Shown here one piece after another: positions 5,736 to 60,769 of a stretch of 64,000 nucleotides of DNA (its first letter is position 1; each line of letters opens with the position of its first letter). The notes under the pieces were generated by a model, which saw only the letters and a list, made by a program, of their open reading frames with translations, was not told the origin of the DNA and searched no databases. The DNA is taken from assembly GCA_003173855.1 (NCBI GenBank), contig PPGI01000004.1, forward strand, positions 176-64,175, written 5' to 3'. The position numbers and the translations under genes are program-made. Origin of the DNA: Candidatus Zambryskiibacteriota bacterium. GTDB taxonomy: Bacteria; Patescibacteriota; Minisyncoccia; Phycocordibacterales; DATDWN01.

Positions 5736-6695
5736 TTACTTGTAGTTACTCAATATACTTTTCACAGTATTAATTGGAATAGCAAAGCCAATGCTGTTTG
5801 CGCCTTGATCTGTGGCAACATTGATTCCAACAATATTTCCATTGAGATCCAATAATGGTCCACCAGAATTTCCTGGATTAATTGCAGCATCTGTTTGAAT
5901 AACACCTCTTAATGTCTCAAGAGTTCCGCTTTCATCTGCAGCTGTTATAGAACGATCAAGTCCAGAAATAATTCCGACTGAAACCGAGTTGTTGTATTCA
6001 CCCAGTGCGTTTCCGATAGCTGCAACTGTTTGACCAAGTTTTAGATTTGATGAATCACCGAGTGAGGCAATTGAATTATAATTTCCATTAATTTTAATTA
6101 TAGCTATGTCGTTTTTTGGATCCGTATAAACAACCTCGGCGATTTTTTCGCTTCCATCTGAGAGAAGGACTTTGTATTGAGCATTTGGATCAAAGATCAC
6201 ATGTTTATTTGTCACAATGTAACCGTCATGTGTGAACAATATTCCAGTTCCAGCACCAACTTTTTGTAAAGTTTGTCCTACTTGTTTGTAAACAGGAATG
6301 CGAATATTGCCAAATCTTGGATCATCACCAAACGGGTTTTCATAACTTATTTGATATTGCGGTGCATATTGAGATATGACAATGGAAACAACAGCTGGTG
6401 CTTCTTTTGCCACTGCCGATGTTATTAATTGATCTTGGGATTTTGCTGCGACTGTTTGTGTTTGAACTGGATTAGAGGATTTGTTCGCTGCTGCAGAAAT
6501 TTGAGCTACAGCATTTTTAGTCGCTGTGGCAATTGACGACTGTGTACCCTCGAGACTTGCAATTTGGGATTGGAGAGTTGCCACTTTAGAGTTCAGCAAA
6601 TGATTTTGGTAAAGGGTTAAAAAACCAAAGATTCCTACTCCAATCATTAGCATTGCTACAACGACAGCAATTGTTTGTAATGCATTTTTTCTCAT
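5736..6695 (-). CDS. Trypsin-like serine protease (HtrA/DegP family, no PDZ domain)
   Basis: N-terminal TM. GNSGGPLLDLNGNIVGINVA catalytic serine motif, His (TNKHVI) and Asp (DIAIIKI) triad elements. Confidence 0.8.
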   Translation of the reverse strand: MRKNALQTIAVVVAMLMIGVGIFGFLTLYQNHLLNSKVATLQSQIASLEGTQSSIATATKNAVAQISAAANKSSNPVQTQTVAAKSQDQLITSAVAKEAPAVVSIVISQYAPQYQISYENPFGDDPRFGNIRIPVYKQVGQTLQKVGAGTGILFTHDGYIVTNKHVIFDPNAQYKVLLSDGSEKIAEVVYTDPKNDIAIIKINGNYNSIASLGDSSNLKLGQTVAAIGNALGEYNNSVSVGIISGLDRSITAADESGTLETLRGVIQTDAAINPGNSGGPLLDLNGNIVGINVATDQGANSIGFAIPINTVKSILSNYK

Positions 6696-22674: not shown

Positions 22675-22822
22675 CTCAGGTCTTTTTGTCCGATTTCTGC
22701 GTTACTCGCTCCGGTTCTCCCTCACCTTACTCTTGTAAGGCTCAGTTCGCTCCTCACTCGCGCCTTGAACTCGAACAAAAATCCTCTGAGCATCTCACCT
22801 CGGATTTCATTCAAATTTGAAA
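22672..22822 (+). repeat. Intergenic repeat element copy A (A/B/C-type 5' module plus shared 3' module)
   Basis: Starts at the TAG stop. TAGCTCAGGTCTTTTTGTCCGATTTCTGCG..., hairpin CACCTTAC-TCTT-GTAAGGCTC, CGCCTTGAACTCGAA, ends CCTCGGATTTCATTCAAATTTGA. Confidence 0.8.
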
Positions 22823-22869
22823 GTTTGGAATACTTGACAATATAACAAGTACATGCTATCTTTAAACGA

Positions 22870-23090
22870 GGTGATTTAGCAAAAATCCTGTCGGAATACT
22901 CTTACGGGGTACAGAGTTAATTACAGAATCCGACTGCTAAGTTAGCGACCAGACTCCCCACAGGGAACTCAACTATCTGCTATTGAAGAGATGGCGGGGG
23001 AAACTGTTAAGAAAGTCTGGTGCGATACCACCCGTGGCCCACTCTGATTAGCCAATAAGGCGAAAGGTTTATAAGAGGGCCACTTTTTTA
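22870..23090 (+). ncRNA. Candidate structured ncRNA of unknown class, with its own promoter and terminator
   Basis: TTGACA (22834-22839), 17 nt spacer, TATCTT. About 215 nt with several hairpins, ending GTGGCCC...GGGCCAC plus a T-run at 23077-23089. No ORF. Confidence 0.3.
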
Positions 23091-23161
23091 TTTGACTAAA
23101 TTTTTAAAAGGAGTAGTATTCATTTTGACCCCGAGAGGGGATTTTTAATAACACAAAATCT

Positions 23162-23891: not shown

Positions 23892-24010
23892 TTCTAAACT
23901 TTCAAATTTGGCGAACTCCTCGCTCCCAAATTAAAAATGCTCGTCACCTTAGCATTAACTAAGGCTTCTCGCATTTTTAATTTCTCACGTCGGATTTCAT
24001 CCAAATTTGG
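23892..24010 (+). repeat. Intergenic repeat element copy E (E/F subfamily)
   Basis: TTCAAATTTGGCGAACTCCTCGCTCCC...CACCTTAGCATTAACTAAGGCTT...CGGATTTCATCCAAATTTGG. Starts 1 nt after the nusG TAG. Confidence 0.8.
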
Positions 24011-24072
24011 AAGTTTCTAATCAGTGTTTGACTTAAAAGTTTTTAGTAATAGGATGAAATTGGAGGTGGATT

Positions 24073-24546
24073 TTGGCTAAAAAGCTTTCAAATCAAGACG
24101 TAGCACTTCGCAAGGCTGTGGAAAAGCGAGAGAAGTTTCTTAAGGTAGTGATTTCGGCTGTCAAAAAGATTCTTTGTGCGCATGGATTACAGACGAAACA
24201 TGAAGTTTGTAGCTCACACACGCATGTAGTCTGGGAACTTTTTGATTTCGCCGGATTCAATTTTTATGGTGATTTCGGACAGACCATGTTTGGTGGAGAC
24301 GAAATCAAGATAACTTACAAAAAGAAGCAGGTCTTCTGTGTATACTGGCAACATGACTTAAAGGTCAAATACTTTGAAAAGAATGACTGGGACAAGCATC
24401 TTTTGAGAGCCCTTGGTCGCAAGAAACAAATCTTGGAGGCAATGAAAAGAAAGGAGAAAAGACGAAGGGAAAAAGACTCTAGACTTTTCAGGAAAGAAGT
24501 TGATCGTCAAAGGCTTGAGGCAAAGGCCAAAGAACTAGCTCTGTAA
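24073..24546 (+). CDS. Hypothetical basic protein inserted between nusG and rplK
   Basis: 157 aa, Cys/His cluster (CAHGLQTKHEVCSSHTH), Lys/Arg-rich C-terminus. GC visibly higher than the flanks. Followed by terminator 24557..24592. Confidence 0.45.
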   Translation: MAKKLSNQDVALRKAVEKREKFLKVVISAVKKILCAHGLQTKHEVCSSHTHVVWELFDFAGFNFYGDFGQTMFGGDEIKITYKKKQVFCVYWQHDLKVKYFEKNDWDKHLLRALGRKKQILEAMKRKEKRRREKDSRLFRKEVDRQRLEAKAKELAL

Positions 24547-24635: not shown

Positions 24636-25058
24636 ATGGCAAAGAAGATAACAAAAAAGCTAAAAATGTTAATCCCTGGAGGCAAAGCCGTTCCAGGTCA
24701 GCAACTTGGTCCTACACTAGGAGGAGCCGGTATTAACATTGGTGATTTCGTAAAGCGTTTTAATGACGAGACAAAAGATCGAGTTGGAGAAATGGTGCCG
24801 ACTATTGTTGAAGTTTATGATGATCGATCTTACAAAATGACTTACAAACTTGAGCCAGTTACTCAACTTATTTTAAAAACTCTAAAAAAAGAAAAAGGTT
24901 CAGGAAAAAATACAGTTTCAAAAGTCGGAACTCTAACAAAAGATCAAGTTCGAGCTATTGCGGAAAAGAAAATGCCAGATTTGAATGCAAACGATATCGA
25001 CGCTGCGATGAAAATCGTCGCCGGTTCTGCACGAAGCATGGGGGTGGATGTGAAGTAA
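24636..25058 (+). CDS. rplK: 50S ribosomal protein L11
   Basis: MAKKITKKLKMLIPGGKAVPGQQLGPTLGGAGINIGDFVKRFN matches L11. The ORF track starts upstream at a non-ATG codon. Confidence 0.9.
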   Translation: MAKKITKKLKMLIPGGKAVPGQQLGPTLGGAGINIGDFVKRFNDETKDRVGEMVPTIVEVYDDRSYKMTYKLEPVTQLILKTLKKEKGSGKNTVSKVGTLTKDQVRAIAEKKMPDLNANDIDAAMKIVAGSARSMGVDVK

Positions 25059-25084
25059 AAAATCACGAAGGTGATTTTTTATTT
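25058..25084 (+). terminator. Terminator after rplK
   Basis: AAAAATCAC-GAAG-GTGATTTTTT. Confidence 0.55.
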
Positions 25085-25135
25085 TGACTAAATTTAAATA
25101 GGTAAGTAATATCTTCAAAAGAAGGAGATAGTTCG

Positions 25136-25696
25136 ATGAATATTGGACTGGATTTTGACGGTGTCATCGTGAATACAGACGCACTGAAGCCCGTGATTGC
25201 CGAAAAAATGTTTGGGGTAAAAATCGAACCCCAAAACTATAACAAGAAATACGTTTTTTCGAAAAACCTACTCACGCCAGAACAATATCTGGCTGTTGCA
25301 GTAGAAGTTCATACAGGCAATCATCCTTTTGAAGAAGTTCCTGGAGCTCTTGAACATATTAAGATGCTTCAGGAGTTTGGTTGCAATATCTCTGTCGTTA
25401 CGAGCCGATCGTTCAGACAAGGTAATCTAGGGATTGCTCAAAATTGGATTTGGAGTAATGGCCTCGATTTGCCAATCATCGGAATTCCATACGGTTCATC
25501 AAAGGTTGAAGCGTGTCGAGAACTCGACATGTTTATCGATGATGATCTGGACGTCGTTGTTTCTTTGATTGGGATTGTTCCCCATCCATTTCTTTTCTCG
25601 TGGCCTCATAAAGTTTGGGATAACATACCCCGAGAAATTACTCAAGTGAGATCGTGGAACGAATTCTACATGTACGTGTACACGTACAGTAAGTGA
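25136..25696 (+). CDS. HAD-superfamily nucleotidase, NT5C-like (5'(3')-deoxyribonucleotidase family), putative
   Basis: N-terminal LDFDGVIV (DxDGV HAD motif I) and later DD motif. Size and pattern resemble NT5C deoxynucleotidases. First gene of the higher-GC island. Confidence 0.5.
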   Translation: MNIGLDFDGVIVNTDALKPVIAEKMFGVKIEPQNYNKKYVFSKNLLTPEQYLAVAVEVHTGNHPFEEVPGALEHIKMLQEFGCNISVVTSRSFRQGNLGIAQNWIWSNGLDLPIIGIPYGSSKVEACRELDMFIDDDLDVVVSLIGIVPHPFLFSWPHKVWDNIPREITQVRSWNEFYMYVYTYSK

Positions 25697-25706
25697 GGGA
25701 GTTCTG

Positions 25707-26342
25707 ATGCGTATCCTTAGACACGAAATGATCAACGAAAAGGAACTTCTTAGTCGATTGAAGCAGGTGCGGCTCAAGGGCTTTGGAGAACCTCTGATAT
25801 ATGAGAGTGCAAATCTCTCAATCGTTCCTGGGGTTATGACAGGAGCTTTGTATCCTCCACAGCGGTACGTCCTCAAGGGAACGGTCGAGACCATTCTCGA
25901 AATCGCGGACGCCTTTGAAAAAAGAAGTATCGACATCTTTGCTCTTCGAGGAGCAGTCTTTTTCTGGCTAGAAGGTTCTGATCCGCTTCTCGATCCTCCG
26001 ATTCCACTTCTGCCACCAATCGTTGAAATCTCTCACGAACCGGGTAATCGTATGGTACCTCTCATAAACGATGGGATGCACAGAACTTATAGTGCACGAA
26101 AACGTGGAAGGGAAATTAACATTGTTCTGGTTGCCAATGTTCCAAGAGAGTATCCGTATTACGCCTATGCACTTAAAGACGGATGGAAAGAGGTGCAGGA
26201 AATTGAGGAACTTACGGATGGTTTCAAGAAAAAGGAGTACAGAAACCCAGACAATTACAAAGCGCTCTTTCGAAATTTCAATGCGGTGTTCCAAGGAGTC
26301 CAGGAACAACGCAAACAAACTCAGCCGGAACTTAAAGAATAA
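25707..26342 (+). CDS. Hypothetical protein with ParB/sulfiredoxin-like (DGxHR) domain
   Basis: PPIVEISHEPGNRMVPLINDGMHRTYSARKRGREINIVLVANVP resembles the ParB-like motif PIvV...Y.iiDGhHR..A....G...i.vvV. Confidence 0.35.
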   Translation: MRILRHEMINEKELLSRLKQVRLKGFGEPLIYESANLSIVPGVMTGALYPPQRYVLKGTVETILEIADAFEKRSIDIFALRGAVFFWLEGSDPLLDPPIPLLPPIVEISHEPGNRMVPLINDGMHRTYSARKRGREINIVLVANVPREYPYYAYALKDGWKEVQEIEELTDGFKKKEYRNPDNYKALFRNFNAVFQGVQEQRKQTQPELKE

Positions 26343-26417
26343 TTTCTGGCACAGCGAGGCATTCGTGCCTCGCTTTTCTTTTTTGTTAGAGTATGTAAAA
26401 GTATTGCGAGAAAGGAG

Positions 26418-27032
26418 ATGTATATGCGTCCTACATGGGATGAGTCGTTCATGCTCAAGGCAATGGTTTCTGCAATAAGAAGTTCGTGTCTCGTTAGACC
26501 CGTTGGCGCAGTTCTTGTTCGAGACAAACGAGAAGTAGCATCTGGCTACAACGGAGCTCCGCCGAATGTAGAGACTTGTCTTGAAACAAGTGTTTGTTTT
26601 TATCAGGATCTAGCCTACAAAGATAGTCTGCTAGGTCATGGTACTTACGAAGATTTGAAAGACAAGAGAAAGCAGTTTTGTGTGGCAGCTCATGCAGAAA
26701 TAAACACTTTTGCACAGTGTTCGCTACTCGGAATTTCTGCTGCAGGTTGCTCACTTTACATCACAAACTTTCCTTGTCCGGGATGTGTTCGAGATGTAAT
26801 TATCCCGAACAAGATTTCTGAGATTGTGGTCTGGAAAGATTACCTCAGGAATCCAGCAATCACTCTTGACGAGCTAACGATGAGTGAACTCTGGCTTCAG
26901 AGAGCTGGCATCAAAGTTCGGAGACTCAAGTTCTCTGAAACAAGAATCAGAGAACTCTTCGTTCAGCTTTTGATGGCTGGTGAGCGTACCGACTACAAGT
27001 TCATTCCACTCACAGAGACCGTACAGAAGTAA
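26418..27032 (+). CDS. dCMP deaminase (ComEB/cytidine-deoxycytidylate deaminase family)
   Basis: CVAAHAEINTFAQC (H-A-E zinc/catalytic motif) and NFPCPGCVRDVI (PCxxC), with close alignment to ComEB. Confidence 0.8.
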   Translation: MYMRPTWDESFMLKAMVSAIRSSCLVRPVGAVLVRDKREVASGYNGAPPNVETCLETSVCFYQDLAYKDSLLGHGTYEDLKDKRKQFCVAAHAEINTFAQCSLLGISAAGCSLYITNFPCPGCVRDVIIPNKISEIVVWKDYLRNPAITLDELTMSELWLQRAGIKVRRLKFSETRIRELFVQLLMAGERTDYKFIPLTETVQK

Positions 27033-27132
27033 TTCTGTACGGTCTTTCTTTATACTTTATTATTATTTGTAAAAGTGATATAAAAATTTAAGAATTGCAC
27101 ATTTTCTTGCGGGTAACCGCTGAAAGGACAAA

Positions 27133-28617
27133 ATGGAATTCGTTCCACTCTACTATGCCGAGCGTCTCCGGGTCGTGAATCCGACCGGAGATGTTGGAAT
27201 TGCAACACTATGGTCAAAAGTGGAGTCAGTTATCGAAGTTCTGGAAAGCTCTGGTGTGGATTTATCTCCAGAAACATCGAGAATTGTTGTAGTGGCTAAT
27301 CTGTACGGAAATGGTTTGCCACACATGCTCCGAAATCTTCTTCACAATCCACAGATTCACTACATTGTAATTTGCGGGAAAAACCTCTCTGGTTCGCGGG
27401 AGTGGCTCCTGAACTTCTTTGCGCACGGGCTTGAAGAAGTAATGTTTCTTGGAGCAAAGTCATTTCGGATCATTGGTACTGAAAGAATCATCGATGGCGA
27501 AGTCAGGCGGGAAGATTTTTCAAATCCTCCACAGATTTCTGTCTTTGGTGAAATTAGTTCCAACGAAACGAAAGTTGGTATCAAAACTTTTCTTGAAACT
27601 TTGCCTCCGAAAATTGGAGACGAAATTATAAGGATTGATCCGCCAGAAGTTCCGCAACCTGCTGTCACGCGTTTTCCATCGAATGCGTTTGGTCATCAGA
27701 TTTTGCGAGAGAGACCAACGGAAGCTTGGCGTGAGCTTATCTTCCGGCTCTATCGTTTTGGTCATCGTACCACTATTACAAAAAGTAGTGGCCCCGAGCA
27801 GCGCATCGAACTTCCAAATGTTCGTGTTGTTGTGGAAGATCCAAGTGAAGAGTCAAAAGAAATAGTTAGTTCGGCGGGGTTTAGCTTGGAAAGATTCCGT
27901 GATTATCAAAAACGGATTCTCGATCCCATAAAGCCTGCTGATCTCGATTACAGCTATGGCTCACTACTTCGTATGGGGCTCGATAAGAAGCCAATCGATT
28001 CGCTAGAAATCATTGCGGATCGAATGACTTCAAATCCTGACACACGAAGTGCCTTTGCAACTCTCTGGAATAACGCCATACACCTTCCGATGGGTCGTGA
28101 CCTTCCATGCTTCGTTACGTTTTTTTTCAGGCGATTCGAAGAAAAGCTCACGATGACTGCTACTTTCCGTGCACATAATGCGATGGATGCATGGCTCGAG
28201 AATTTTTACGGCCTTGCAGCTATTCAAAGATTTGTTACGGAAAGATCAGGTTTAGAACGTGGTCCCATAACGGTCATAAGTCATTCAATAAGCATTGACC
28301 CTAATGCTCTTTCTCGGGCCAAGAGTATTGTTGATGACAAAAAGACAGACGAGATTCTCGATAAATCAACTGGCAAATTGGGCCCTCGTTTTGATCCGAA
28401 CGGCGCCTTTACGGTGACTATCGATCGCTCGACACTTGAACTCGTTGTCGAGCATTCGTTTCAAGGCATGAAGCTTGGCGAATATCGCGGCAGGACAGTG
28501 GAGGAAATCGAACACCAACTCTCACGTGATGAGGTACTGTCCGTATTCTCACATGCACTTTACCTAGGACGAGAGCTTGCAAGAAAGGAGATGGAATTAA
28601 AAGTTCTAAAGAAATAA
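27133..28617 (+). CDS. Thymidylate synthase / dCMP-hydroxymethylase superfamily enzyme with a novel roughly 200-aa N-terminal extension
   Basis: C-terminal half aligns to ThyA: YSYGSLLR...IDSLEIIADRMTSNPDTRSAFATLWN ~ PVYGKQWR...[26 protein letters not shown]. Nucleophile Cys in PCF (ThyA PCH) at nt 28108-28110. GPITVISHSISI ~ GDFVWTGGDTHLY. Confidence 0.6.
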   Translation: MEFVPLYYAERLRVVNPTGDVGIATLWSKVESVIEVLESSGVDLSPETSRIVVVANLYGNGLPHMLRNLLHNPQIHYIVICGKNLSGSREWLLNFFAHGLEEVMFLGAKSFRIIGTERIIDGEVRREDFSNPPQISVFGEISSNETKVGIKTFLETLPPKIGDEIIRIDPPEVPQPAVTRFPSNAFGHQILRERPTEAWRELIFRLYRFGHRTTITKSSGPEQRIELPNVRVVVEDPSEESKEIVSSAGFSLERFRDYQKRILDPIKPADLDYSYGSLLRMGLDKKPIDSLEIIADRMTSNPDTRSAFATLWNNAIHLPMGRDLPCFVTFFFRRFEEKLTMTATFRAHNAMDAWLENFYGLAAIQRFVTERSGLERGPITVISHSISIDPNALSRAKSIVDDKKTDEILDKSTGKLGPRFDPNGAFTVTIDRSTLELVVEHSFQGMKLGEYRGRTVEEIEHQLSRDEVLSVFSHALYLGRELARKEMELKVLKK

Positions 28618-28620
28618 GAG

Positions 28621-28652
28621 AGCCCCGCTGCTAAGTCAGAGCGGGGCTTTTT
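28621..28652 (+). terminator. Strong GC-rich rho-independent terminator closing the island
   Basis: AGCCCCGCTG-CTAAGTCAG-AGCGGGGCT then TTTTGT. Confidence 0.7.
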
Positions 28653-28682
28653 GTAATTTGAGCTCAATGTTATCATTCCAAT

Positions 28683-29108
28683 ATGATTCTGAAGGTTAAA
28701 AAACTTCATTCAGATGCCATTTTGCCATCATATGCTCACCCAGGAGATGCCGGACTGGATATGTATTCAAATGAGACTGTGACAATTGAACCCGGGCAGG
28801 CACATAAGGTGAAAACTGGGATTGCATTCGAGATTCCAGACGGCTACGTGGGACTGATTTGGGATAAAAGTGGAGTAGCATTTAATCATAAATTAAAAAC
28901 TTTAAGCGGAGTGATAGATTCAGGATACAGAGGTGAAGCTATGCTTAGTCTCATAAATTTAAGCAATACACCTTGCACGATAGAAAAAGGTCATAAAGTC
29001 TCGCAAATGTTAATTCAAAAAGTGGAAACAGTTGAAGTGAAAGAGGTTAATGAATTATCAGAAACGAAACGTGGTGAAGGTGGTTTTGGAAGTACTGGAA
29101 GAAAATGA
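28683..29108 (+). CDS. dut: dUTP diphosphatase (dUTPase)
   Basis: AGLDM, GVIDSGYRGE, and C-terminal RGEGGFGSTG motifs. Confidence 0.85.
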   Translation: MILKVKKLHSDAILPSYAHPGDAGLDMYSNETVTIEPGQAHKVKTGIAFEIPDGYVGLIWDKSGVAFNHKLKTLSGVIDSGYRGEAMLSLINLSNTPCTIEKGHKVSQMLIQKVETVEVKEVNELSETKRGEGGFGSTGRK

Positions 29109-30727
29109 TGAGAGAAAAATTAGAAAATTTAATAAATACTGCGTTAAAAGAACTCAAATTAAATGAGTTTGTAAATACTCAGTTTGGAAAAATTTATAGT
29201 ATTGATTATCCAAAAAGAATGGATTTCGGGGATTATAGTACAAATGTTGGAATAATTATTGGAGGGTCGGGTCACCCAGAGGATATTTTGAAATGGCTTG
29301 ATGAGCATAAACCAGAAGAAGTTGAAAAAATTGAAACAAAAGCTGGTTTTATTAATTTTTTTCTTAGTCCAAATTATTTTGAAAATGTGTTAAAGAATTT
29401 AGAAATTCCAAAAAATTCTGACGAGAATTTATTTATTGAACACACTCAACCCAATCCATTTAAAGCTTTTCATATCGGTCATTTGATGAACAATGCAATA
29501 GGTGAATCAATTGCTCGAATCACAAAATCTCTTGGTGCTGAAGTTCAAACGGCAACTTATCATGGTGACAAAGGTTTGCATGTTGCTAAAGCTGTATGGG
29601 CAATAAAAAAAGGAAAGAATTTAAATGAAGCATATGCATTTGGAAACAAAGCATATGAAGAGGATCAAATTGCAAAAGAAGAAATAATTGAAATAAATAA
29701 AAAAATTTACGACGAAAGTGATCCGGAAATAAATCAAATTTATGAGGATGGAAGAAAAGAGTCACTCGAGCATTTTGAATCAATATACAAAATGCTTGGC
29801 AGCGAATTTGATTTCCATTTCTTTGAAAGTGAGACAGGAGAAGTTGGTAAAGAACTAGTCGAAGAAAATTTAGGTAAGGTTTTTGAAAAAAGTGAAGGAG
29901 CTGTAGTTTTTAAGGGAGAAAACTTTGAGCCTAAAACTCATACACGTGTTTTTCTAAACTCTGATGGACTTCCGACATATGAAGCTAAAGAACTTGGAAT
30001 TGCCAAACTAAAAAGTGATTTTTTTGATTTCGACAAGTCTATAACAATTACTGCAAACGAACAGGATTCATTTTTCAAAGTCGTTGAAGTAGTTATTGGT
30101 GAAGTAATGCCAGAACTCAAAGGCAAAATTATGCATCTATCTCATGGGCTTTTGAAATTACCAACTGGAAAAATGTCATCAAGAACCGGATCGATAATCT
30201 CTGTGGAGTCTTTAATTGATCAAGTTAAAGAAAAGGTAAAAGCTAAAATTGATGATGATAAAATCTCTGAGATTATTGCCCTAGGAGCAATTAAGTATTC
30301 GATTTTAAGACAAGGTATCGGTAAGGATATTATTTTTGATTTTGATAAATCGATTTCATTTGAAGGTGATTCTGGCCCATATTTACAATATTCAACAGTT
30401 CGAGCAAGATCGCTTTTAAAAAAGGCAGAAGGTGTTATTAAATTATCAAATAAACTTCCAGAAAGCTGGCAAACGACAAATTTGGAAAGAATGCTTGAGA
30501 GATTTCCATCAATCGTAGCTCGAGCAGGTTCAGAATTTGCTCCTCATTATGTTGCAACATATTTAATTCAGTTAGCATCCGAATTTAACCATTTCTACAA
30601 TGAACACAAAATAATTGATGAAAAAGATCCTAAATCTCCTTATCGTTTAACTTTGGTTAAAGCATTTTCTGAAGTGATGGAAATGGGACTTGATTTACTT
30701 GCTATAAAAATACCAGACAGAATGTAA
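29105..30727 (+). CDS. argS: Arginyl-tRNA synthetase
   Basis: HIGH motif (FHIGHLMNN), DALR anticodon-binding domain, and the characteristic C-terminal ...DRM. Confidence 0.8.
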   Translation: MMREKLENLINTALKELKLNEFVNTQFGKIYSIDYPKRMDFGDYSTNVGIIIGGSGHPEDILKWLDEHKPEEVEKIETKAGFINFFLSPNYFENVLKNLEIPKNSDENLFIEHTQPNPFKAFHIGHLMNNAIGESIARITKSLGAEVQTATYHGDKGLHVAKAVWAIKKGKNLNEAYAFGNKAYEEDQIAKEEIIEINKKIYDESDPEINQIYEDGRKESLEHFESIYKMLGSEFDFHFFESETGEVGKELVEENLGKVFEKSEGAVVFKGENFEPKTHTRVFLNSDGLPTYEAKELGIAKLKSDFFDFDKSITITANEQDSFFKVVEVVIGEVMPELKGKIMHLSHGLLKLPTGKMSSRTGSIISVESLIDQVKEKVKAKIDDDKISEIIALGAIKYSILRQGIGKDIIFDFDKSISFEGDSGPYLQYSTVRARSLLKKAEGVIKLSNKLPESWQTTNLERMLERFPSIVARAGSEFAPHYVATYLIQLASEFNHFYNEHKIIDEKDPKSPYRLTLVKAFSEVMEMGLDLLAIKIPDRM

Positions 30728-30751: not shown

Positions 30752-33700
30752 ATGGAAAAAGGAGAAGATAAATCCTTAAAAAGTCCAATTGCTATAAAGG
30801 AGGAAGAAATACTAGCTTTCTGGAAAGAAAACAAAATTTTTGAGAAGTCGTTAGAGAAAAAATCGCCAAAAGGTGAGTTTGTATTTTACGATGGTCCAGC
30901 AACTGCAAATACAAAACCAGTTTTTCATACAATGGAACCTTTTGCTTTCAAGGATTTGATTCCACGCTACAGAACAATGCGAGGTTATCACGTTCGTAGA
31001 AAGGGTGGGTGGGACACTCATGGTTTGCCAGTTGAATTGCAGATTGAGAAAAAACTTGGATTTAAATCAAAAAAAGATATTGAAAATTTTGGTATCGCCG
31101 AATTTAACAGACTCTGTAAAGAAAGTGTCTGGGAATTTATCGGATTGTGGAAAGATTTCACTTCGAGAATGGCTTACTGGGCTGATCAAGACAATGCTTA
31201 CGTCACTTACGATAACGCATACATCGAATCTGTATGGAATGTAATTAAATATGTTAATGACAGAAATTTACTCTACAAGGATTACAAAGTTCTACCTTGG
31301 TGTCCAAGATGTGGAACCGCTCTTTCTTCTCATGAGCTTGCTCAAGGATATCAAGATGACAAAGATCTTTCAGTAACTGCAAAATTTAAAGTTGTTGGGG
31401 AAGAAAATACGTATTTACTTGCTTGGACAACGACTCCTTGGACTTTGCCTGGAAATGTTGCTCTAGCTGTAGGGGCCGATATTGATTACGTAAAAATAAA
31501 AAAAGGAGAGGAATTTTTAATTCTGGCTAAAGAAAGATTATCAATTGTTGAAGACGAATATAAGATAGTTGAAGAATTCAAAGGTGTGAAATTAGTCGGT
31601 TTAAAATACGAGCCACTTTACCACTATCTTGCAAATAAATTTGATAAAAAAGATCCGATTGCTTTCGAAAAATCTTATCAAATCTACGCTGCGCCTTTTG
31701 TAAACACTGAAGATGGAACAGGAATTGTTCATACGGCTGTAATGTATGGCCAGGATGATTTTGTCCTAGGGACATCTGTCGGTTTGCCGAAGCATCATTT
31801 GGTAAAAGATGATGGGCATTTTGGAGATGATATGGATTTTCTCTCAGGCAGGTTTGTTAAAGACGAAGAGGTGGCAGTAGATATTGTTAAAGATTTGGCC
31901 AAGAGAGGATTATTGTTTGATAAAAAATATTATACTCACTCGTACCCTCATTGTTGGAGATGCAAAACTCCGCTTATTTATTATGCGCGAGATTCTTGGT
32001 ACATCTCGATGTCAAAATTGCGTTCAGAACTTGTTCGTGAAAACGAAGAAATTCATTGGGAACCAGAACATATTAAAGAAGGCCGATTTGGTGAGTGGCT
32101 TCGTGAGATAAAGGATTGGGCGCTTTCTCGAGAGAGATATTGGGGAACACCTCTGCCTGTTTGGTTTGATGATGAAGGAAATTTTACAGTTCTGGGTTCA
32201 ATTGAAGATTTAAAAAAACACATAAAAACTTCGGGGAATAAATATTTTTTGATGCGACATGGTTGGGCACTTTGTAATGAAAAAAATGTAGAAAGTTTAA
32301 ATCCAGGAGAAGAAAATGATTCAATAACCGAAAAGGGAATTGCTGAAGCAAAAAAATCATTAGGAAAATTAAAAAATATAGATTTAATTGTTACATCCAA
32401 TTTTCGACGAGCAAAACAGACTGCAGAACTTGCTGCAGAATATTTTGGAATTCCAAAAAATGAAATTATCGTTGATGAGGGTTTGTGTGAAGATGAGGGC
32501 ACAATGGAGCATTTTGCTGGAGTTCGAAAAAGAATGGTTGAAGCTATGTCAGATCTAGAGAAAAAAAATTTAAATAAAAATATTCTAGTTATTTCTCATC
32601 AGTACCCGCTTAGAGTTTTGATTTCATCACATGAAGCATTTAACGAAAGAGAAGAAAAAGAAAAATTTGAAGTTACTCCATTTGATACCGGAGAAATTAG
32701 AGAAATTAATTTCTTGCCATTACCTCGAAATTCCAATTCCGAAGTAGATTTACACCGACCATACATCGATGAAGTCGAGTTAGTAGATAAAAATGGAAAG
32801 AAATTACAGCGTGTAAAAGAGGTGATGGATGTTTGGTTTGATTCAGGTTGTATGCCATTTGCCCAAGATCATTATCCGTGGAATAGAGATATACTTTATC
32901 CTGCAGATTTTATTTCGGAGGCTATCGATCAGACGCGAGGCTGGTTTTATACGTTGCATGCAATTGGAGTGTTAATGGAAAAAGGCAGAGCGTTTAAAAA
33001 TGTAATTTGTCTCGGACATATTCTTGATAAAGAGGGCAAAAAAATGTCGAAATCTGTCGGCAATGTTGTTGATCCTTGGACAGTTATAGATAAATTTGGT
33101 GTCGATGCATTGCGTCTCTGGATGTATTCAGTAAATTCTCCGGGAGATTCAAAAAACTTTGATGAGAAAAGTGTGGATGAATTAATAAAAAAAGTCTTCA
33201 ATCCATTAAACAATATCGTAGCATTTTACGAATTATATAAAGACGAGAACACAAAAACGACTAACAAAAGCAAAAATGTTTTAGATAAGTGGATACTATC
33301 GAGGTTCGCACAGTTAATTAAAAGTGGGACAGAAAACATGGATAATTTCAAAGTTTTTGAATCAGCACGCCCGATAAGAGATTTTGTAAATGATTTTTCA
33401 ACTTGGTATGTCAGACGATCACGAGATAGGTTTAAGTCTGATAATGTTGACGAAAAGAACGAAGCTCTTGGAACAACTTTGTTTGTACTAATGGAATTGG
33501 CAAAATACATGGCACCGTTCACACCATTTTTTGCTGAAGAAATTTATCAAAAACTTAAGACTTCAAATGATCCAGAAAGTGTTCATTTAGAGAATTGGCC
33601 AGAAGCACCAAAGTTAGACAATGGTTTGCTCGATCAAATGGAAAAAGCTAGAGTTGTTGTATCTCGAGCACTGGAACTTAGACAAAAAGCAGGTCACAAA

Positions 33701-34075
33701 ATTCGTCAGCCATTGCAAAGTCTTTCTATTCCAGAAAAATTTGATAGAGAAATGCTAGAAATTATTGCTGACGAAGTGAATGTAAAAGTAGTAAAAATTT
33801 CTGGGAATGAAGTTGTTCTTGATACGAATCTCACAGAAGAACTTAAAACCGAAGGAATAATGAGAGATGTTATTCGTTTTATTCAAGATTCAAGGAAAAC
33901 AAAAGGATTGCTCGCTACAAAAGTTGTCTCGGCAACGATTTTCCTCCCGAATTCGATAGCAGAAGTTGTATCTACATATAAAAGCGAAATTATAAAAATT
34001 ACTAATCTTTCTGAACTTCAAGTGGTAATAGATAAAAAAGAAGGTGAAGAATTGAATGTTGATTTTGTGTCATAA
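30752..34075 (+). CDS. ileS: Isoleucyl-tRNA synthetase (type 2) with an inserted histidine-phosphatase-like domain and a degenerate HIGH motif
   Basis: WDTHGLPVE, WCPRCGTALSSHE, WALSRERYWGTPLP, DLHRPYID, KMSKSVGN all IleRS-like. About 155-aa insert with RHG...TSNFRRAKQTA...VISHQ between WGTPLP and DLHRPYID. Confidence 0.8.
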   Translation: MEKGEDKSLKSPIAIKEEEILAFWKENKIFEKSLEKKSPKGEFVFYDGPATANTKPVFHTMEPFAFKDLIPRYRTMRGYHVRRKGGWDTHGLPVELQIEKKLGFKSKKDIENFGIAEFNRLCKESVWEFIGLWKDFTSRMAYWADQDNAYVTYDNAYIESVWNVIKYVNDRNLLYKDYKVLPWCPRCGTALSSHELAQGYQDDKDLSVTAKFKVVGEENTYLLAWTTTPWTLPGNVALAVGADIDYVKIKKGEEFLILAKERLSIVEDEYKIVEEFKGVKLVGLKYEPLYHYLANKFDKKDPIAFEKSYQIYAAPFVNTEDGTGIVHTAVMYGQDDFVLGTSVGLPKHHLVKDDGHFGDDMDFLSGRFVKDEEVAVDIVKDLAKRGLLFDKKYYTHSYPHCWRCKTPLIYYARDSWYISMSKLRSELVRENEEIHWEPEHIKEGRFGEWLREIKDWALSRERYWGTPLPVWFDDEGNFTVLGSIEDLKKHIKTSGNKYFLMRHGWALCNEKNVESLNPGEENDSITEKGIAEAKKSLGKLKNIDLIVTSNFRRAKQTAELAAEYFGIPKNEIIVDEGLCEDEGTMEHFAGVRKRMVEAMSDLEKKNLNKNILVISHQYPLRVLISSHEAFNEREEKEKFEVTPFDTGEIREINFLPLPRNSNSEVDLHRPYIDEVELVDKNGKKLQRVKEVMDVWFDSGCMPFAQDHYPWNRDILYPADFISEAIDQTRGWFYTLHAIGVLMEKGRAFKNVICLGHILDKEGKKMSKSVGNVVDPWTVIDKFGVDALRLWMYSVNSPGDSKNFDEKSVDELIKKVFNPLNNIVAFYELYKDENTKTTNKSKNVLDKWILSRFAQLIKSGTENMDNFKVFESARPIRDFVNDFSTWYVRRSRDRFKSDNVDEKNEALGTTLFVLMELAKYMAPFTPFFAEEIYQKLKTSNDPESVHLENWPEAPKLDNGLLDQMEKARVVVSRALELRQKAGHKIRQPLQSLSIPEKFDREMLEIIADEVNVKVVKISGNEVVLDTNLTEELKTEGIMRDVIRFIQDSRKTKGLLATKVVSATIFLPNSIAEVVSTYKSEIIKITNLSELQVVIDKKEGEELNVDFVS

Positions 34076-42712: not shown

Positions 42713-43129
42713 ATTAGACTTACTTATCCACATTTCATACATTACAATTTTTTCTAAAAAAGACTGATTTTGTTAGAAATGATCAGGATTGATCAAACAC
42801 TTTTTAAGTCAAATTTTGAATTTTAGCCATCATAAGGGTTTTGTATTTCTATACTAGAAACCTATATAAACCTTTATAAACATTCATAAAAAAAGCAGGT
42901 TTTATTAACCTTTAGTTCAATTATAATTTGGCTTGATCTTTCTCGGATATTAATTTAATTTTCTAAAAATTTTTTAAAAATTAGCATTTCTTAGAAATTT
43001 CAAATTTTAATAAAATCAACGAAATTGGAAAAATCATTTTCTAAGGCCAAAACCTCGTTTTATGGCTAATAATAAGTGATAAAATATTATTATTGCTACG
43101 CTCGCTTTGTAGCAAAGTACCTTATTCTG

Positions 43130-46100
43130 ATGAAACTCAGGAAGTATAAATCTTTGAAAGGAAGGTATGCTTTGTGCCTAATTACATTTTTTTTGGGGTC
43201 TTTTTTGCTCTCTCCAAGTAGTGTCTTCGCTGCCCCAATGATTTCTAGCGAATTCAAAGAGGGTCTTTATAATAAAGGTTTTATTGATTTGCGAGAAATA
43301 AATAAAGTCATAAATCAATTATCAAGCAAAATAAATTATAATTTAACATTTTCAAGTTCTTTCCCAACAAGCACAAATTTTTCAAATGTAGAATCAGCAA
43401 ATATAAATATTTCAGATTTTTTTTCTTCTGCAATTTCTGAGGCAAAATATTTAACAGATGGCCAGGTTGCATTAATCAAAAATTATTTGGATTCAGTAGC
43501 CGGCGGTCTGCAATATGTTTCTAGTTCATTTAAAATTGCATACCAACGATCAAACAATCGAAGATCAACTGCCAGTGCTTTAAATTCTGGTAAGTTTAGA
43601 AATCGAGCGGCGGTTCAAAAAACGACTACAAAAGTTGCAGTTGTTAAAAACGAAAATCAATCACCTCCTGCAAAAAATGTTGCTGCGATTTCTTTCCCAC
43701 AAGTAATTAAAAAAATTCTAAATCCTTCTCGAGTGTCAGTGCCAAGTGCAACTGAACAAATTTTAGCATCTGCAAACTTTGTTACAAAAGTTGATTTAGA
43801 ATCTAGTTTGCAAAAAATCTATAATGAAATTTTACAGAAATTTTCAAACACAGGATCAGTGAGCTCCACAGATCTGGCAGCAATTTACAGACAAATTGCT
43901 CTTAGTCAAAAAATTGATAATTTATCAAATGTTGTTATAACAAATCCAACTATTTCTGGTGGAACAATTACTAACGTCACCAATCTGACAGTTGCAGCAA
44001 CTGGTTCAACAACAATTACAAACCTGGTAGTTACAAATACTTCAACATCAACATTTGCAGGTGGAATAGCGATAACAGGTGGATGTCTTTCTGTAAACGG
44101 CACATGTATTAGTTCTGGCTCTGGTTCCGGAACCCCTGGAGGATCAGATGGGTATGTTCAATTTAACAGTGGAGGATCATCTTTTGGAGGCTCGTCAAAT
44201 TTTGTTTGGGATAATACAAATATTAGGCTTGGAATAGGCACATCATCCCCATATTCAACTCTCTCTGTCGCAGGTCAGATAGTAGGAGCATATTTTACAG
44301 CAACTACAACAACTGCAAGCACATTTCCTTATGCATCGACTACCGGTGTCTCTATTACCGGGGGATTAACCCTTCCAACAACTTTTAATGGCCCTCTTCA
44401 GGCGAATGCTGGAATAGTTTCTGCAACAACATCAATTGGAATTCTTTATGGAGGTACCGGAGCTACAACTTTCGGAGCCAACTCGATTATTACTTCAAAC
44501 TCAGCTGGTACAGCATTGATTGCAACGACTTCAAACAACTTTACTATCGGATCTCTCATTGCCACGAGTTCAACTCTGAACAATATTTTTCTTAACAATT
44601 GGAATGGTTTTGGAACAAGTACGCCAAAATGGTTAGCACAATTTTCATCTTCAACTGCACCTCAGCTGGCTTTATCTGATGCAGGAAGTAACATCTGGAC
44701 ATTCAGAGTGGATTCAGGTTCACTTACAATTGGAACATCTTCACCAACTACATTTGCTACCAGCACTACACCTCAAATTTCTATTGCCAATACTGGATTT
44801 GGTACAACGACACTTCGTGGACTAAATATTAATGCTCAAGCTACGAGCACTTCTAACGTTGGTGAAAATATCTCAACTGGTTGTTTTGCTATGTCTGGAA
44901 CTTGTATGGGCATCTTCCCATTCACGACAAATGCTGGATACAACTCAACATCTACAATACTTGGACTTAACGGACTATTCTCAACTGCCTCATCAACATT
45001 CAGTTCATCACTTTATTTATCAAGTCTCACTCAAGGATTTAGCTACCTGGGATCTAATGGATTAATACAAACTATTGCAACAAGTACTCTAGCAAATTAC
45101 ATCCTTCCATTTACCTCATACGGAGCTTCAACCTCAACAATACTTGGATTTACAAATGGTCTGTTTTCTACAGCATCATCAACATTCTCATCTAACCTAT
45201 ATCTCTCGAACCTCACTCAAGGATTTAGCTATCTAGGTTCAAATGGACTATTTCAAACAATCTCAACATCAACATTAGCCAACTACATCCTTCCATTCAC
45301 TTCCTACGGAGCATCAACTTCAACAGTTCTAGGTCTAACAGGAGGTTACTTCTCAACAGGATCATCAACGCAGAGTGGAAACTTCTTCCTTCCAGCACTA
45401 ACTCAAGGTTTCACCTACACTGGTTCAAACGGATTGGTTTCTATAGTTTCGACTTCAACTCTAACCAACTTCATTTTGACTTTCAAATCATACGGAGTCT
45501 CGACCTCATCCGTTACCGGCTTTTTGGGCGGTTTCTTCTCAACTGCCTCCTCAACACAATCTTCTAACTTTTATCTTCCAGCTCTAACACAAGGTTTCCT
45601 TTACAACGGATCAAGTGGTCTAACACAAACTATTGCTTCTTCTTCTGTAAACCTATCTTGGTTTAATAACGATGCGGCATTTGCCAATAACCCATTTACT
45701 GCAATATCATCACAAGCAGGATATTCCGCTACTACATCTTCATTGGTTATTGGAACAACTACGGCTCCAGTAAACATTGCTTCTGTTACAATCGCGTCAT
45801 CAACCGCCTCTCAACTTGCACTTAGTGGTGGAGCAGGTCAATCAATATGGACATTTAGAAATGCTGGAAGTAACTTCTACCTAGCAACTACTACAACTGC
45901 CGGCACAGCAACCACATCAACAAACGCTATGACAATATTGGGAAGCAGCGGTTTTGTTGGCTTTGGAACAACAACTCCAACTCTTGGCCCTCTGACAATG
46001 AACTCTGGAGCGTATGTAACAACTGGAGGTGTTTGGACGAATGCTTCAGATCGAAATTTGAAAGAGAATTTTCTTGAAGTAAATATTGAAGAAATACTTA

Positions 46101-46819
46101 ATAAAATTGTTCAATTGCCTATCACGCAATGGAACTATAAAGCTGAACCAGCAAGCACCACTCACATAGGTCCAGTGGCTCAAGATTTTTATGCTGCATT
46201 TCATACTGGAGGTTCAAATACTTCTATTTCTACTATAGATCCTGCGGGCGTTGCTCTAGTCGGAATAAAAGCTTTGTATAAGATGATTACAGACATCAGT
46301 AAATATTTTGTTAATGATGTTTTGAAAATTGGCCAAGTTTCTACTAAAAAACTTTGTGTTTCTGACGAAAACGGAGAAACTTGCATTACACGAGCAGAAC
46401 TTACAGCACTTCTTCTTAAGCTTAAAGATTCTGGCAGTAATTCAAACACACAAACACCACCACCAAACAGTCCACCTCCTCCTCAAAATTCCAACGCAAC
46501 TAGCACTGAAACTTCTGCGGACACAACTGCACCAGTTATAACTATCATTAGCGATAACCCTGCAAATGTATTTTTTGGAACAACATATTCTGATATGGGA
46601 GCAACGATAACTGATACTGGCGCTGATGGGACTGTAAATAATAATCTCGGGTTACATTTCAGCGTAGATGGAGTAAATGTAGATCAAGTTATTATAGATA
46701 CCTCGATAAGTAGCACCTCAGTTCAGGCAACCACAACCCATACAGTGGTTTATTCAGCAGTCGATAGTTCAGGCAACTGGGGTTATGCTACGCGTACAGT
46801 TAACGTTTTACCTCAATAA
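43130..46819 (+). CDS. Giant tail-fibre-like surface protein with internal tandem repeats, S74 intramolecular-chaperone domain and C-terminal DUF5011 Ig-like domain
   Basis: Signal peptide. Four 60-aa tandem repeats (nt 44944-45660). SDRNLKENF...QWNYK...HIGPVAQDF matches the endosialidase chaperone domain. C-terminus APVITIISDNPANVFFGTTYSDMGATITD...TRTVNV matches DUF5011. Confidence 0.6.
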   Translation: MKLRKYKSLKGRYALCLITFFLGSFLLSPSSVFAAPMISSEFKEGLYNKGFIDLREINKVINQLSSKINYNLTFSSSFPTSTNFSNVESANINISDFFSSAISEAKYLTDGQVALIKNYLDSVAGGLQYVSSSFKIAYQRSNNRRSTASALNSGKFRNRAAVQKTTTKVAVVKNENQSPPAKNVAAISFPQVIKKILNPSRVSVPSATEQILASANFVTKVDLESSLQKIYNEILQKFSNTGSVSSTDLAAIYRQIALSQKIDNLSNVVITNPTISGGTITNVTNLTVAATGSTTITNLVVTNTSTSTFAGGIAITGGCLSVNGTCISSGSGSGTPGGSDGYVQFNSGGSSFGGSSNFVWDNTNIRLGIGTSSPYSTLSVAGQIVGAYFTATTTTASTFPYASTTGVSITGGLTLPTTFNGPLQANAGIVSATTSIGILYGGTGATTFGANSIITSNSAGTALIATTSNNFTIGSLIATSSTLNNIFLNNWNGFGTSTPKWLAQFSSSTAPQLALSDAGSNIWTFRVDSGSLTIGTSSPTTFATSTTPQISIANTGFGTTTLRGLNINAQATSTSNVGENISTGCFAMSGTCMGIFPFTTNAGYNSTSTILGLNGLFSTASSTFSSSLYLSSLTQGFSYLGSNGLIQTIATSTLANYILPFTSYGASTSTILGFTNGLFSTASSTFSSNLYLSNLTQGFSYLGSNGLFQTISTSTLANYILPFTSYGASTSTVLGLTGGYFSTGSSTQSGNFFLPALTQGFTYTGSNGLVSIVSTSTLTNFILTFKSYGVSTSSVTGFLGGFFSTASSTQSSNFYLPALTQGFLYNGSSGLTQTIASSSVNLSWFNNDAAFANNPFTAISSQAGYSATTSSLVIGTTTAPVNIASVTIASSTASQLALSGGAGQSIWTFRNAGSNFYLATTTTAGTATTSTNAMTILGSSGFVGFGTTTPTLGPLTMNSGAYVTTGGVWTNASDRNLKENFLEVNIEEILNKIVQLPITQWNYKAEPASTTHIGPVAQDFYAAFHTGGSNTSISTIDPAGVALVGIKALYKMITDISKYFVNDVLKIGQVSTKKLCVSDENGETCITRAELTALLLKLKDSGSNSNTQTPPPNSPPPPQNSNATSTETSADTTAPVITIISDNPANVFFGTTYSDMGATITDTGADGTVNNNLGLHFSVDGVNVDQVIIDTSISSTSVQATTTHTVVYSAVDSSGNWGYATRTVNVLPQ

Positions 46820-55100: not shown

Positions 55101-55691
55101 GCCTTGTAATAATAGTGTGATATTTACGTCTATGCCCATAGTAATCGACTTGACAGAATAGTTGACTTTTTTAGCCTTTTCATGAAATAATGGCCAAACG
55201 GATGATTTGGCTTTAAAAGCTATATATTTAGCCACATAAAGTCGTAGTTATCCACATATTCTGGTTGGAAGTATATAAAAGAGTGTATATAATTAGTCTC
55301 ATACGGCAATTGTATTCACTTCATTTTTATACTGAATTTCAGAACGAATCAGAACTTTGACAACTGAATATGGATTTAAAAATTAAAGCATGATTTTTGT
55401 CATGCTTACTCACAGTCTAACTGATTATTCTTTAATTACAGTGATGGATGAACTCAGTCAAAAAATACATCTATACCTTTGCTTTATGTGTCGATTAGCA
55501 AATGAAGTGAAGGATTAGAATGAAAGGTATAACTCTTCATCTTTATGTATGCAAAGTTTTTTTTGCGGACATAGAGATGAACGAGTTGTATCGGAATTAT
55601 TAAGTTCGGTATAATCGTTTTTCAAAATAATTTTTTCTTAAAATTATTTAACAGTAAAAGAGAAAATTATTTCATTATTAAAAATACACAT

Positions 55692-60148: not shown

Positions 60149-60154
60149 TCCGGA

Positions 60155-60748: not shown

Positions 60749-60769
60749 TTTGACACAAAAGCCTAATTT

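Follow-up and report, generated by a model that had tools for sequence, protein, structure and literature searches.

Thymidylate (dTMP) synthesis is essential and a drug target, and it is thought to come in two forms, as ThyA together with dihydrofolate reductase (DHFR, FolA) or as ThyX. Phages such as T4 and SPO1 follow a scheme in which a deaminase, a thymidylate synthase (TS)-like enzyme, a nucleotidase, a kinase-like protein and a dUTPase act together. A methanogen-type TS (TIGR03283, MJ0757-like) is a short protein of ~200 aa, and its cofactor is itself unsettled (PMC9012536). Here we analyzed a 64,000-nucleotide stretch (the window) of contig PPGI01000004.1 from a Candidatus Zambryskiibacteriota bacterium, a member of the candidate phyla radiation (CPR). 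Between the end of rplK (25058) and dut, the list of open reading frames (ORFs) contains four co-directional genes on the + strand (25.1–28.65 kb). They encode a HAD-fold hydrolase (25136–25696, 186 aa), a ParB-CE protein (25707–26342, 211 aa), a deoxycytidylate (dCMP) deaminase (26418–27032, 204 aa) and a TS-like fusion protein of three domains (27133–28617, 494 aa). All four identities, which had been proposed from the letters of the DNA as an HAD nucleotidase-like protein, a ParB/Srx-like protein, a dCMP deaminase and a member of the TS superfamily, were upheld, for the HAD protein with a weak profile match. We concluded that this block is probably a dTMP synthesis cassette residing in a conserved thymidylate locus at which such cassettes have been exchanged in situ.

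The fusion differs from each of the described systems. Its core resembles the methanogen-type TS and has the same catalytic Cys, but it is flanked by MtrA-fold and DUF4346 domains and has HAD and ParB-CE as partners. The fusion occurs in bacteria (CPR, Acidobacteriota and others) and in DPANN archaea, not in methanogens. In contrast to ThyA plus FolA and to eukaryotic DHFR-TS, the N-terminal domain has an MtrA and not a DHFR fold, and FolA was never found adjacent. ThyX shares with the fusion its chromosomal slot and the lack of FolA, but has an unrelated fold, and ThyX loci have P-loop kinases (Tmk, AAA_17) where fusion loci have ParB-CE and HAD. MtrA, the corrinoid subunit of the methyl-tetrahydromethanopterin:coenzyme M methyltransferase, and its cytoplasmic paralogues differ from the fusion at two positions, His84 and Glu54, which are Ser and Tyr in the latter. 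ParB/Srx-fold small-molecule enzymes such as SerK, SbnI and sulfiredoxin are the nearest structures to ParB-CE. The phage sets (T4 gp42/cd/gp56/gp1; SPO1 hydroxymethyl-dUMP) display the same gene combination, and the module is occasionally phage-borne; unlike them, it is cellular, syntenic with housekeeping genes, located in the ThyA/ThyX position, and has Asn instead of Asp at the specificity site.

Retrieval anchored on NusG yielded 80 further loci, and the 38 with at least 4.5 kb downstream were used for counts (compared loci and contigs carry labels such as L002, L005, L025 and L078). In the rplK–argS interval, a canonical ThyA was present in 25 of these 38 relatives (with FolA adjacent in 20), ThyX in 10, a divergent fusion of three domains, lacking ParB-CE and HAD, in one, and no TS in two. 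Genes for dCMP deaminase or DCD, dut, serine hydroxymethyltransferase (SHMT) and Tmk also occur in this interval in varying order, and ThyX loci often encode Tmk and an AAA_17 kinase. The interval is a conserved thymidylate locus, as observed in 36 of the 38 relatives. Six CPR relatives that were found via the fusion carry the cassette at the same site, in the order nusG-rplK-[HAD]-ParB-CE-deaminase-fusion-(SHMT)-(dut)-argS and with 56–70% protein identity. The original prediction had described a new island inserted between rplK and dut and had proposed to look for an empty junction in relatives. This was not supported, as other relatives had a different TS cassette at the site and not an empty junction. 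The enzyme dut functions in the pathway, has native composition, and belongs to the conserved locus, not to the cassette, because it is found there in relatives of any TS type.

The relative L079, whose NusG is 91% identical to that of the window, has rplK followed by genes for dCMP deaminase, AAA_17 kinase, ThyX, Tmk, nucleoside deoxyribosyltransferase, SHMT, dut and argS. The ThyX of this locus (L079 10770–13751) is unusually long at 430 aa. It is flanked by the AAA_17 kinase, a kinase of the Tmk/dNK-like type and a nucleoside 2-deoxyribosyltransferase, and together they give this CPR genome a compact set for both salvage and de novo synthesis of dTMP. In a neighbor-joining tree of ArgS, the TS types were interspersed. 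Here, L005 (fusion) was sister to L079 (ThyX), L026 (fusion) was sister to L087 (ThyX), and L002 (fusion) grouped with ThyA loci, indicating that the slot was refilled repeatedly. The cassette was therefore likely exchanged in situ among lineages and not recently inserted. No ThyA, ThyX, FolA, Tmk or SHMT was detected elsewhere in the 64-kb window (using E. coli and CPR queries for TS, FolA and Tmk). That the fusion occupies the same slot and context as ThyA plus FolA or ThyX is the strongest argument for dTMP as its product. FolA was adjacent in 20 of 25 ThyA loci, 0 of 10 ThyX loci and 0 of 8 CPR fusion loci. Because FolA stands beside ThyA but not beside the fusion, we infer that the fusion system may be independent of a dedicated DHFR.

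The TS-fold core of the fusion (residues ~190–400, 27700–28332) matched the Pfam family Thymidylat_synt (PF00303; E 8e-6, 25.6 bits against a cut-off of 24.3) at residues 269–397, but this match covered only profile positions 88–219 of 266. The best-scoring family was TIGR03283 (thy_syn_methano; E 5e-26, profile positions 9–193 of 201). C326, R346 and Y275, which align to C146, R166 and Y94 of E. coli ThyA, were invariant in 25 homologues, as were the Arg residues binding the phosphate of deoxyuridylate (dUMP) and N357, the equivalent of Asn177. Arg126 of E. coli ThyA is likewise retained in the alignment, and Gln165 is replaced by Phe in the fusion family. Hydroxymethylases for dCMP such as T4 gp42 recognize cytosine by an Asp in place of Asn177. 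The invariant Asn of the fusion family would exclude such a specificity. To our knowledge, there is no sequence diagnostic for a dUMP hydroxymethylase, that is, for hydration versus hydride transfer to the exocyclic methylene. Members of the family are already labeled 'thymidylate synthase' by JGI and NCBI, and the nearest database relative of the window's protein was 70% identical.

The N-terminal domain (residues ~1–176, 27133–27660) has the Rossmann-like fold of MtrA, from which the cobalt-ligand network is gone. The corrinoid of MtrA has His84 as the ligand of its cobalt, and a hydrogen bond connects this His to Glu54 (PMC4915002). These residues align to Ser88 and Tyr58 of the fusion, both invariant among the 25 homologues, and thus the His-on corrinoid site is not conserved. 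The window's fusion had no match to Pfam MtrA, and the divergent fusion of L084 did have one. A fusion encoded on a 287-kb viral contig from IMG/VR (L078, 7179–8681) has Gly-His at the cobalt-ligand position, in contrast to the Gly-Ser of the cellular family, so that corrinoid binding might persist in some members. The C-terminal PterinBD-DUF4346 domain (PF14251; residues 421–494, 28393–28614; E 2e-14 at residues 421–490), which the original prediction had missed, is also found at the end of MtrA paralogues of the long type (NF002128, matched with E 1e-11) and of a protein resembling dihydropteroate synthase (TIGR00284, E 4e-5). A pterin-binding role, as implied by the Pfam name, would fit this occurrence. 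Literature searches on DUF4346 and PterinBD found no paper describing such a role.

The HAD protein matched the Pfam families HAD_2/NT5C weakly (E ~1e-3, 18.9 bits, below the gathering cut-off of 24.8). Its motif I, DFDGV at residues 6–10, has both the nucleophile Asp and the general acid at Asp+2, and the orthologue in L005 is listed with PF06941 NT5C. Alignment separated two HAD subfamilies of the cassette, an NT5C-like type with DxD in CPR ('type A'), to which the window's protein belongs, and an HAD_2-like type elsewhere; the DPANN proteins are of the latter type and carry DxD. The ParB-CE protein matched PF24392 (Parb-CE) with E 1e-31 and has the ParB/sulfiredoxin core fold and an invariant NDGxHR motif. 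Its structure was predicted with confidence (pLDDT 88.7, pTM 0.85), and the solved structures nearest to this model were Atu1540, the free serine kinases SerK and SbnI, sulfiredoxin and PadC, at low Z of 5.4–6.1. No helix-turn-helix DNA-binding domain and no C-terminal dimerization domain was detected by Pfam, which sets it apart from the ParB of chromosome partition, a DNA clamp that depends on CTP. The family is small (574 clusters at 50% identity), and nearly all of the 150 best representatives are stand-alone proteins of ~200 aa. The search for 'Rosetta stone' fusions of ParB-CE came down to two proteins of ~380 aa whose tails were low-complexity only, and these were dismissed. A fold search of BFVD with ParB-CE gave only generic ParB-like matches (TM ~0.27), and sequence searches of the PDB gave nothing usable for ParB-CE or HAD. 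We also discarded the idea of a serine kinase and phosphoserine phosphatase pair feeding SHMT, which would be a futile cycle; weak fold similarity was its sole support. The deaminase, a zinc-dependent type with HAE and PCxxC motifs in its translation, matched PF00383 (dCMP_cyt_deam_1, E 1.5e-16), PHROG 174 (dCMP deaminase, E 1e-34) and, below its cut-off, the ComEB-type profile (E 9e-23).

Judged from sequence, fold and gene context, the cassette would work as follows. The dCMP deaminase and the neighboring dUTPase would make dUMP, and the fusion would methylate it to dTMP with a catalytic Cys of the ThyA type in a TS core resembling that of methanogens. A pterin or folate-type cofactor, held with the help of the DUF4346 domain, would carry the one-carbon unit, and the MtrA-fold domain, having lost the corrinoid ligands, may have a structural, cofactor-handling or reductive role. 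HAD and ParB-CE are co-inherited with the fusion across phyla, most plausibly acting as a phosphatase and as an NTP-dependent phosphotransferase, respectively, on deoxypyrimidine nucleotides or nucleosides or on the cofactor. ThyA plus FolA, ThyX, and fusion plus HAD plus ParB-CE would represent three interchangeable solutions at this locus, and the cassette would have reached or left lineages by in-situ replacement.

Several results weigh against this assignment. The fusion scored 91.6 bits against TIGR03283, far from the equivalog cut-off of 174.55, and thus lies outside the equivalog. As Asp169, His147 and Arg127 of E. coli ThyA are replaced by Asn (N349), Phe (F327) and Ser or His (S306 here), its folate contacts are unlike those of canonical TS. 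Together with the partial profile match, these replacements bore out the expectation that the enzyme is not a canonical ThyA. The best structural match was a TS-fold PDB entry titled 'Monooxygenase dependent on riboflavin with dCMP and FAD', and a CMP hydroxymethylase ranked above true TS. Since the structural neighbors include both hydroxymethylases and TS, the fold does not fix the chemistry. The HAD subfamily differs between phyla, and the HAD proteins of Acidobacteriota, Thiotrichales and the viral contig L078 have an 'FDIGSTL'-like motif lacking the phosphatase Asp+2. Most fusions of Desulfobacterota have neither ParB-CE nor HAD nearby. Our literature searches found no biochemical data for the fusion family. 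Finally, the neighbor-joining trees lack support values, and the ORFs of the fetched loci were called in a mechanical and crude way.

The distribution of the fusion was determined by a pattern-based scan of one genome per species, which under-samples divergent homologues. It was found in Bryobacterales/Terriglobia, Patescibacteria, Thiotrichales (Thiomargarita, Parabeggiatoa), Thermodesulfobacteriota, Competibacteraceae, Chloroflexia and DPANN archaea; some taxon labels of metagenome-assembled genomes are doubtful, for example 'Bordetella' bins. By profile search of six-frame ORFs, ParB-CE was located within 2.5 kb of the fusion in 40 of 65 loci. These 40 genome loci, in which fusion, HAD and ParB-CE are adjacent, stem from Acidobacteriota, CPR, DPANN and Thiotrichales, and comprise all Acidobacteriota, all CPR, all nine DPANN and some Thiotrichales, but hardly any locus of Desulfobacterota. 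The genes of Acidobacteriota are ordered fusion-HAD-ParB-CE and often overlap. No consistent functional partner and no DHFR was seen in the fusion neighborhoods of Desulfobacterota. In a neighbor-joining tree of the fusion, CPR sequences formed a basal grade beside the main Acidobacteriota clade, and a second Acidobacteriota clade grouped with Thiotrichales, which indicates that the fusion has moved across phyla. A recent import from Acidobacteriota was rejected, as the CPR sequences are basal and the main Acidobacteriota clade is nested beside them.

Among viral contigs, only three metagenomic ones were found to carry the fusion. The 287-kb contig L078 has HAD, ParB-CE, deaminase and fusion in the order of the window, with proteins only 31–35% identical. 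The baseplate-encoding contig L077 has ParB-CE and the fusion, and in the 81-kb contig L074 the fusion lies between dnaN and ribonucleotide reductase. None of 50,697 deposited phage genomes had a full-length fusion or ParB-CE. A phage origin, which had been raised for the block, was thus not supported. Two further phage contigs from IMG/VR (L075 and L076, ~70 kb, 26% GC) encode ParB-CE proteins (5980–6585 and 6001–6582, respectively; PF24392, E 1e-39 to 1e-41) immediately upstream of the genes for terminase large subunit and portal, and no TS fusion was found within 6 kb of them. This terminase-side position indicates that the ParB-CE family also has a context unrelated to thymidylate synthesis. 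In literature searches on DUF4346, PterinBD, ParB-CE and TS with ParB, HAD or MtrA, the module was not found described. Neither a survey of ParB-CTPases (PMC12704722) nor a paper on phage T-dioxygenase/ParB proteins (PMC13229309) mentions it. Compared with the literature searched, the new element is a three-domain archaeal-type TS with HAD and ParB-CE, without DHFR, that alternates with ThyA plus FolA and with ThyX.

As predicted, the block has a deviant composition. Its GC content of 43.8% exceeds the 36.8% of the window, and no other 3.6-kb stretch reaches this value (mean of non-overlapping stretches, 36.5±1.8%). GC content at third codon positions (GC3) of the four cassette genes was 0.39–0.43 (0.41 for HAD), corresponding to z = 3.2–3.5 relative to the 58 other ORFs of at least 100 aa (mean 0.258, sd 0.043, max 0.357). 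The values for rplK (0.29), dut (0.28) and argS (0.20) were native, and no GC3 excess was seen in nusG either. A second GC-rich patch (~43% GC) is formed by a 1208-aa ORF at 55581–59207, which has a single Pfam match, a peptidoglycan-binding domain. This patch at 55.7–59.2 kb was rejected as a sister island: its GC3 is ordinary (0.25), and it is thus another phenomenon than the cassette, as its high GC derives from amino-acid composition and not from codon choice. A 157-aa ORF between nusG and rplK (24073–24546) has a GC3 as high as the cassette (0.43–0.44) and is preceded by its own TTGACT-16-TAGGAT site. Neither a Pfam match nor a homologue among the fetched loci was found for it, and relatives, in which rplK directly adjoins nusG, lack this ORF.

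The GC3 excess is shared with relatives. In L005, cassette GC3 was 0.41–0.53 compared to 0.20–0.30 in the flanks, and all seven CPR cassette loci displayed an excess of +0.04 to +0.16, which was weaker in those other than the window and L005. At the same locus, the excess was +0.02 for ThyA, +0.05 for ThyX, −0.02 for FolA and +0.20 for the divergent fusion. No excess occurred in the DPANN or Thiomargarita copies of the fusion cassette, and no systematic one in the ThyA, FolA, ThyX, Tmk or deaminase genes of the other relatives' loci. Between the window and L005, the cassette (42–71% amino-acid identity) has diverged about as far as the flanks (61% for ArgS and 65% for IleS). Four-fold synonymous sites at conserved residues were at or near saturation in all genes compared (fusion, 0.36 observed versus 0.27 expected; HAD and ParB-CE at expectation), and synonymous similarity of the cassette was no greater than that of the flanking genes. 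As the sites are saturated and the excess is common to both, one ancient import cannot passively explain it. The window's ParB-CE was closest to those of L025 and L029 (64%; L005 only 55%), and its deaminase, fusion, ArgS and IleS were all closest to those of L005, hinting at mosaic exchange within the cassette. In-situ replacement is the likely source of the deviant GC. Its persistence could possibly be due to repeated replacement from GC-richer donors or to biased gene conversion at a recombining locus.

Other explanations of the block were weighed against a dTMP synthesis cassette. Its gene set formally equals the phage scheme, and the TS-like core might be a dUMP hydroxymethylase or another C5-modifying enzyme in a pathway to DNA of the 5-hydroxymethyluracil type, as in SPO1-like phages. 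ParB-CE would then phosphorylate the modified nucleotide and HAD would remove competing dTMP or dUMP, with deaminase and dUTPase feeding dUMP. The fusion's occurrence without FolA would agree with this, as a hydroxymethylase does not oxidize folate, and so would the cassettes on the two viral contigs L077 and L078. Yet we regard a modified-pyrimidine pathway as unlikely, because the slot is taken by ordinary ThyA plus FolA or ThyX in 35 of 38 relatives. No second TS was found in the window, and a cell cannot do without dTMP unless its thymine is replaced entirely, which is not known from cellular genomes. Moreover, the module is part of core loci in streamlined genomes and common among free-living Acidobacteriota, the Asn at the specificity site excludes a preference for cytosine, no relative occurs in deposited phage genomes, and no genes for glycosyl-, amino-acid- or polyamine-transferases were found near the cassette. 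The suggestion of a hypermodified-base pathway was thus not supported; the content of the slot in relatives and the absence of another TS from the window argue for ordinary dTMP synthesis.

A recent, possibly phage-derived island between rplK and dut whose high GC is an un-ameliorated donor signature appears more improbable still. It would account for a GC3 z above 3 in exactly these four genes, for the same genes in the same order on contig L078, and for the additional high-GC3 ORF on the other side of rplK. But the cassette is found at the same site in six relatives, the proteins of L078 are distant, and even the closest database match to the fusion shares only 70% identity with it. L005 has the same GC3 excess despite saturated four-fold sites, and a single recent import cannot explain both. 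A repeat search detected no direct repeats flanking the block, the nearest tRNA gene lies ~9 kb away at 16.2–16.3 kb, and no match to an integrase or other mobility gene was found among the scanned ORFs of the block and its scanned neighbors. Of the hallmarks of a recent genomic island or prophage, we thus found deviant composition, but neither absence from relatives nor repeats, a nearby tRNA gene or mobility genes. Of the proposed horizontally acquired thymidylate module, the thymidylate role and a horizontal history stood, the latter on the alternation of cassette types among relatives and the presence of the same module in other phyla, archaea and a few phage contigs; a recent acquisition was not supported. 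The GC excess may instead be a maintained property of the cassette, caused by GC-biased gene conversion or by selection on codons or mRNA structure, with essentially vertical inheritance in the clade. The excess in all seven CPR loci and in the divergent fusion despite saturated synonymous divergence, the mosaic similarity and the hairpins between genes speak for such maintenance. The lack of an excess in the DPANN and Thiomargarita copies, in same-locus ThyA, ThyX and FolA, and in the highly expressed rplK and nusG speaks against it, as does the interspersion of TS types on the ArgS tree, according to which replacement does occur. We consider this view possible although rather doubtful, and it is compatible with, not exclusive of, a dTMP synthesis cassette exchanged in situ.

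The boundaries of the block were largely as predicted. An AT-rich hairpin followed by a T-run (25053–25084; arms 25053–25066 and 25071–25084, 93% complementary) is a putative rplK terminator. The cassette's site at 25067–25112 is promoter-like by its match to the consensus, with TTGACT (−35) at 25084, a 17-nt spacer, and TAATAT (−10) ending at 25112. The motif at 25075–25095, reported to have a near-identical counterpart, has one relative at 23083–23103 with 3 mismatches (2 occurrences versus 0.03 expected); its 5' half is the T-tail of the putative rplK terminator. The two belong to a gapped 29-nt repeat (25067–25095 and 23075–23103, copies 79% identical), the second copy of which lies upstream of secE-nusG, and TTGACT-16/17-TAnnAT is present at both. 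A 39-nt direct repeat (22793–22831 and 23983–24021, 87% identical) occurs with each copy just upstream of a promoter-like TTGAC(A/T). The two kinds of repeat, of 39 and 29 nt, point to a family of promoter-proximal elements that are used repeatedly. The strong GC-rich terminator was confirmed as an intrinsic-terminator-like hairpin at 28621–28652 that closes the GC-rich block, with a perfect 9-bp stem of the arms AGCCCCGCT (28621–28629) and AGCGGGGCT (28640–28648) and a T-run thereafter. Two internal terminator-like hairpins add to this picture, one in the gap between ParB-CE and deaminase (26353–26374; 9-bp stem with 6 GC pairs, then a T-run) and one of 15 bp at the end of the deaminase gene (27014–27047). 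As stated previously, dut (28683–29108, profile match above cut-off) and argS (29105–30727) follow directly downstream on the same strand.

Further features of the window were noted. A gene-free gap of 485 nt between a SIMPL gene and secE (22675–23160, ~45% GC) contains a strong promoter-like site (TTGACA-17-TATCTT, 22834–22862) and a stem of GTGGCCC...GGGCCAC with T6 behind it, which ends at ~23090. A stretch of ~225 nt within it folds better than shuffled sequences (z = −3.0, 1 of 200). Neither an Rfam match (E≤1) nor a tRNA was found in the gap, and the fetched relatives had nothing similar; it may encode an unclassified small RNA. The gene rplA (L1) is missing from both of its usual places, after rplK (25058–25136) and before rplJ-rplL (60149–60948; rplJ-rplL at 60948–61907), and it was not seen after rplK in the 38 NusG-anchored relatives nor in the gene tables of L002 and L005–L008. 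L1 has reportedly been lost in a subgroup of Parcubacteria, and the missing rplA is consistent with that. IleS (30752–34075) has an inserted histidine-phosphatase domain (His_Phos_1, residues ~499–586, E 1e-16) with an RHG motif, and the same insertion is recorded for IleS of L002, L006 and L007. A 1247-aa ORF at 43076–46819 has a Peptidase_S74 (endosialidase chaperone) and an Ig-like surface domain, and its predicted product is a large surface or tail-fiber-like protein.

In one clade and at one site, both known forms of thymidylate synthesis alternate with a third gene set, whose enzyme is only a distant, domain-fused relative of ThyA with no DHFR beside it and with two obligatory-looking partners. 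As a tentative further reading, fusion, HAD and ParB-CE might constitute a third self-contained route to thymidylate, with a ThyA fold of archaeal ancestry, its own pterin-binding and MtrA-fold domains, and no requirement for DHFR. ParB-CE, in an NTP-dependent manner, and HAD might then handle the cofactor or (deoxy)pyrimidine phosphates, and the unit might have spread horizontally among CPR, DPANN, Acidobacteriota, giant sulfur bacteria and some phages, taking the place of the classical enzymes several times at a single conserved locus. In a more radical variant, the product of the fusion would be 5-hydroxymethyl-dUMP. The locus provides a natural setting for asking whether a ThyA-fold enzyme works without DHFR. 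It bears on the cofactor of archaeal-type TS, a long-standing gap, and on a role of non-DNA-binding ParB/Srx proteins in nucleotide metabolism. It also shows cleanly how a gene can be displaced in situ by a non-orthologous one, with a compositional signature that persists, and it bears on the supply of DNA precursors in the metabolically minimal cells of CPR and DPANN.

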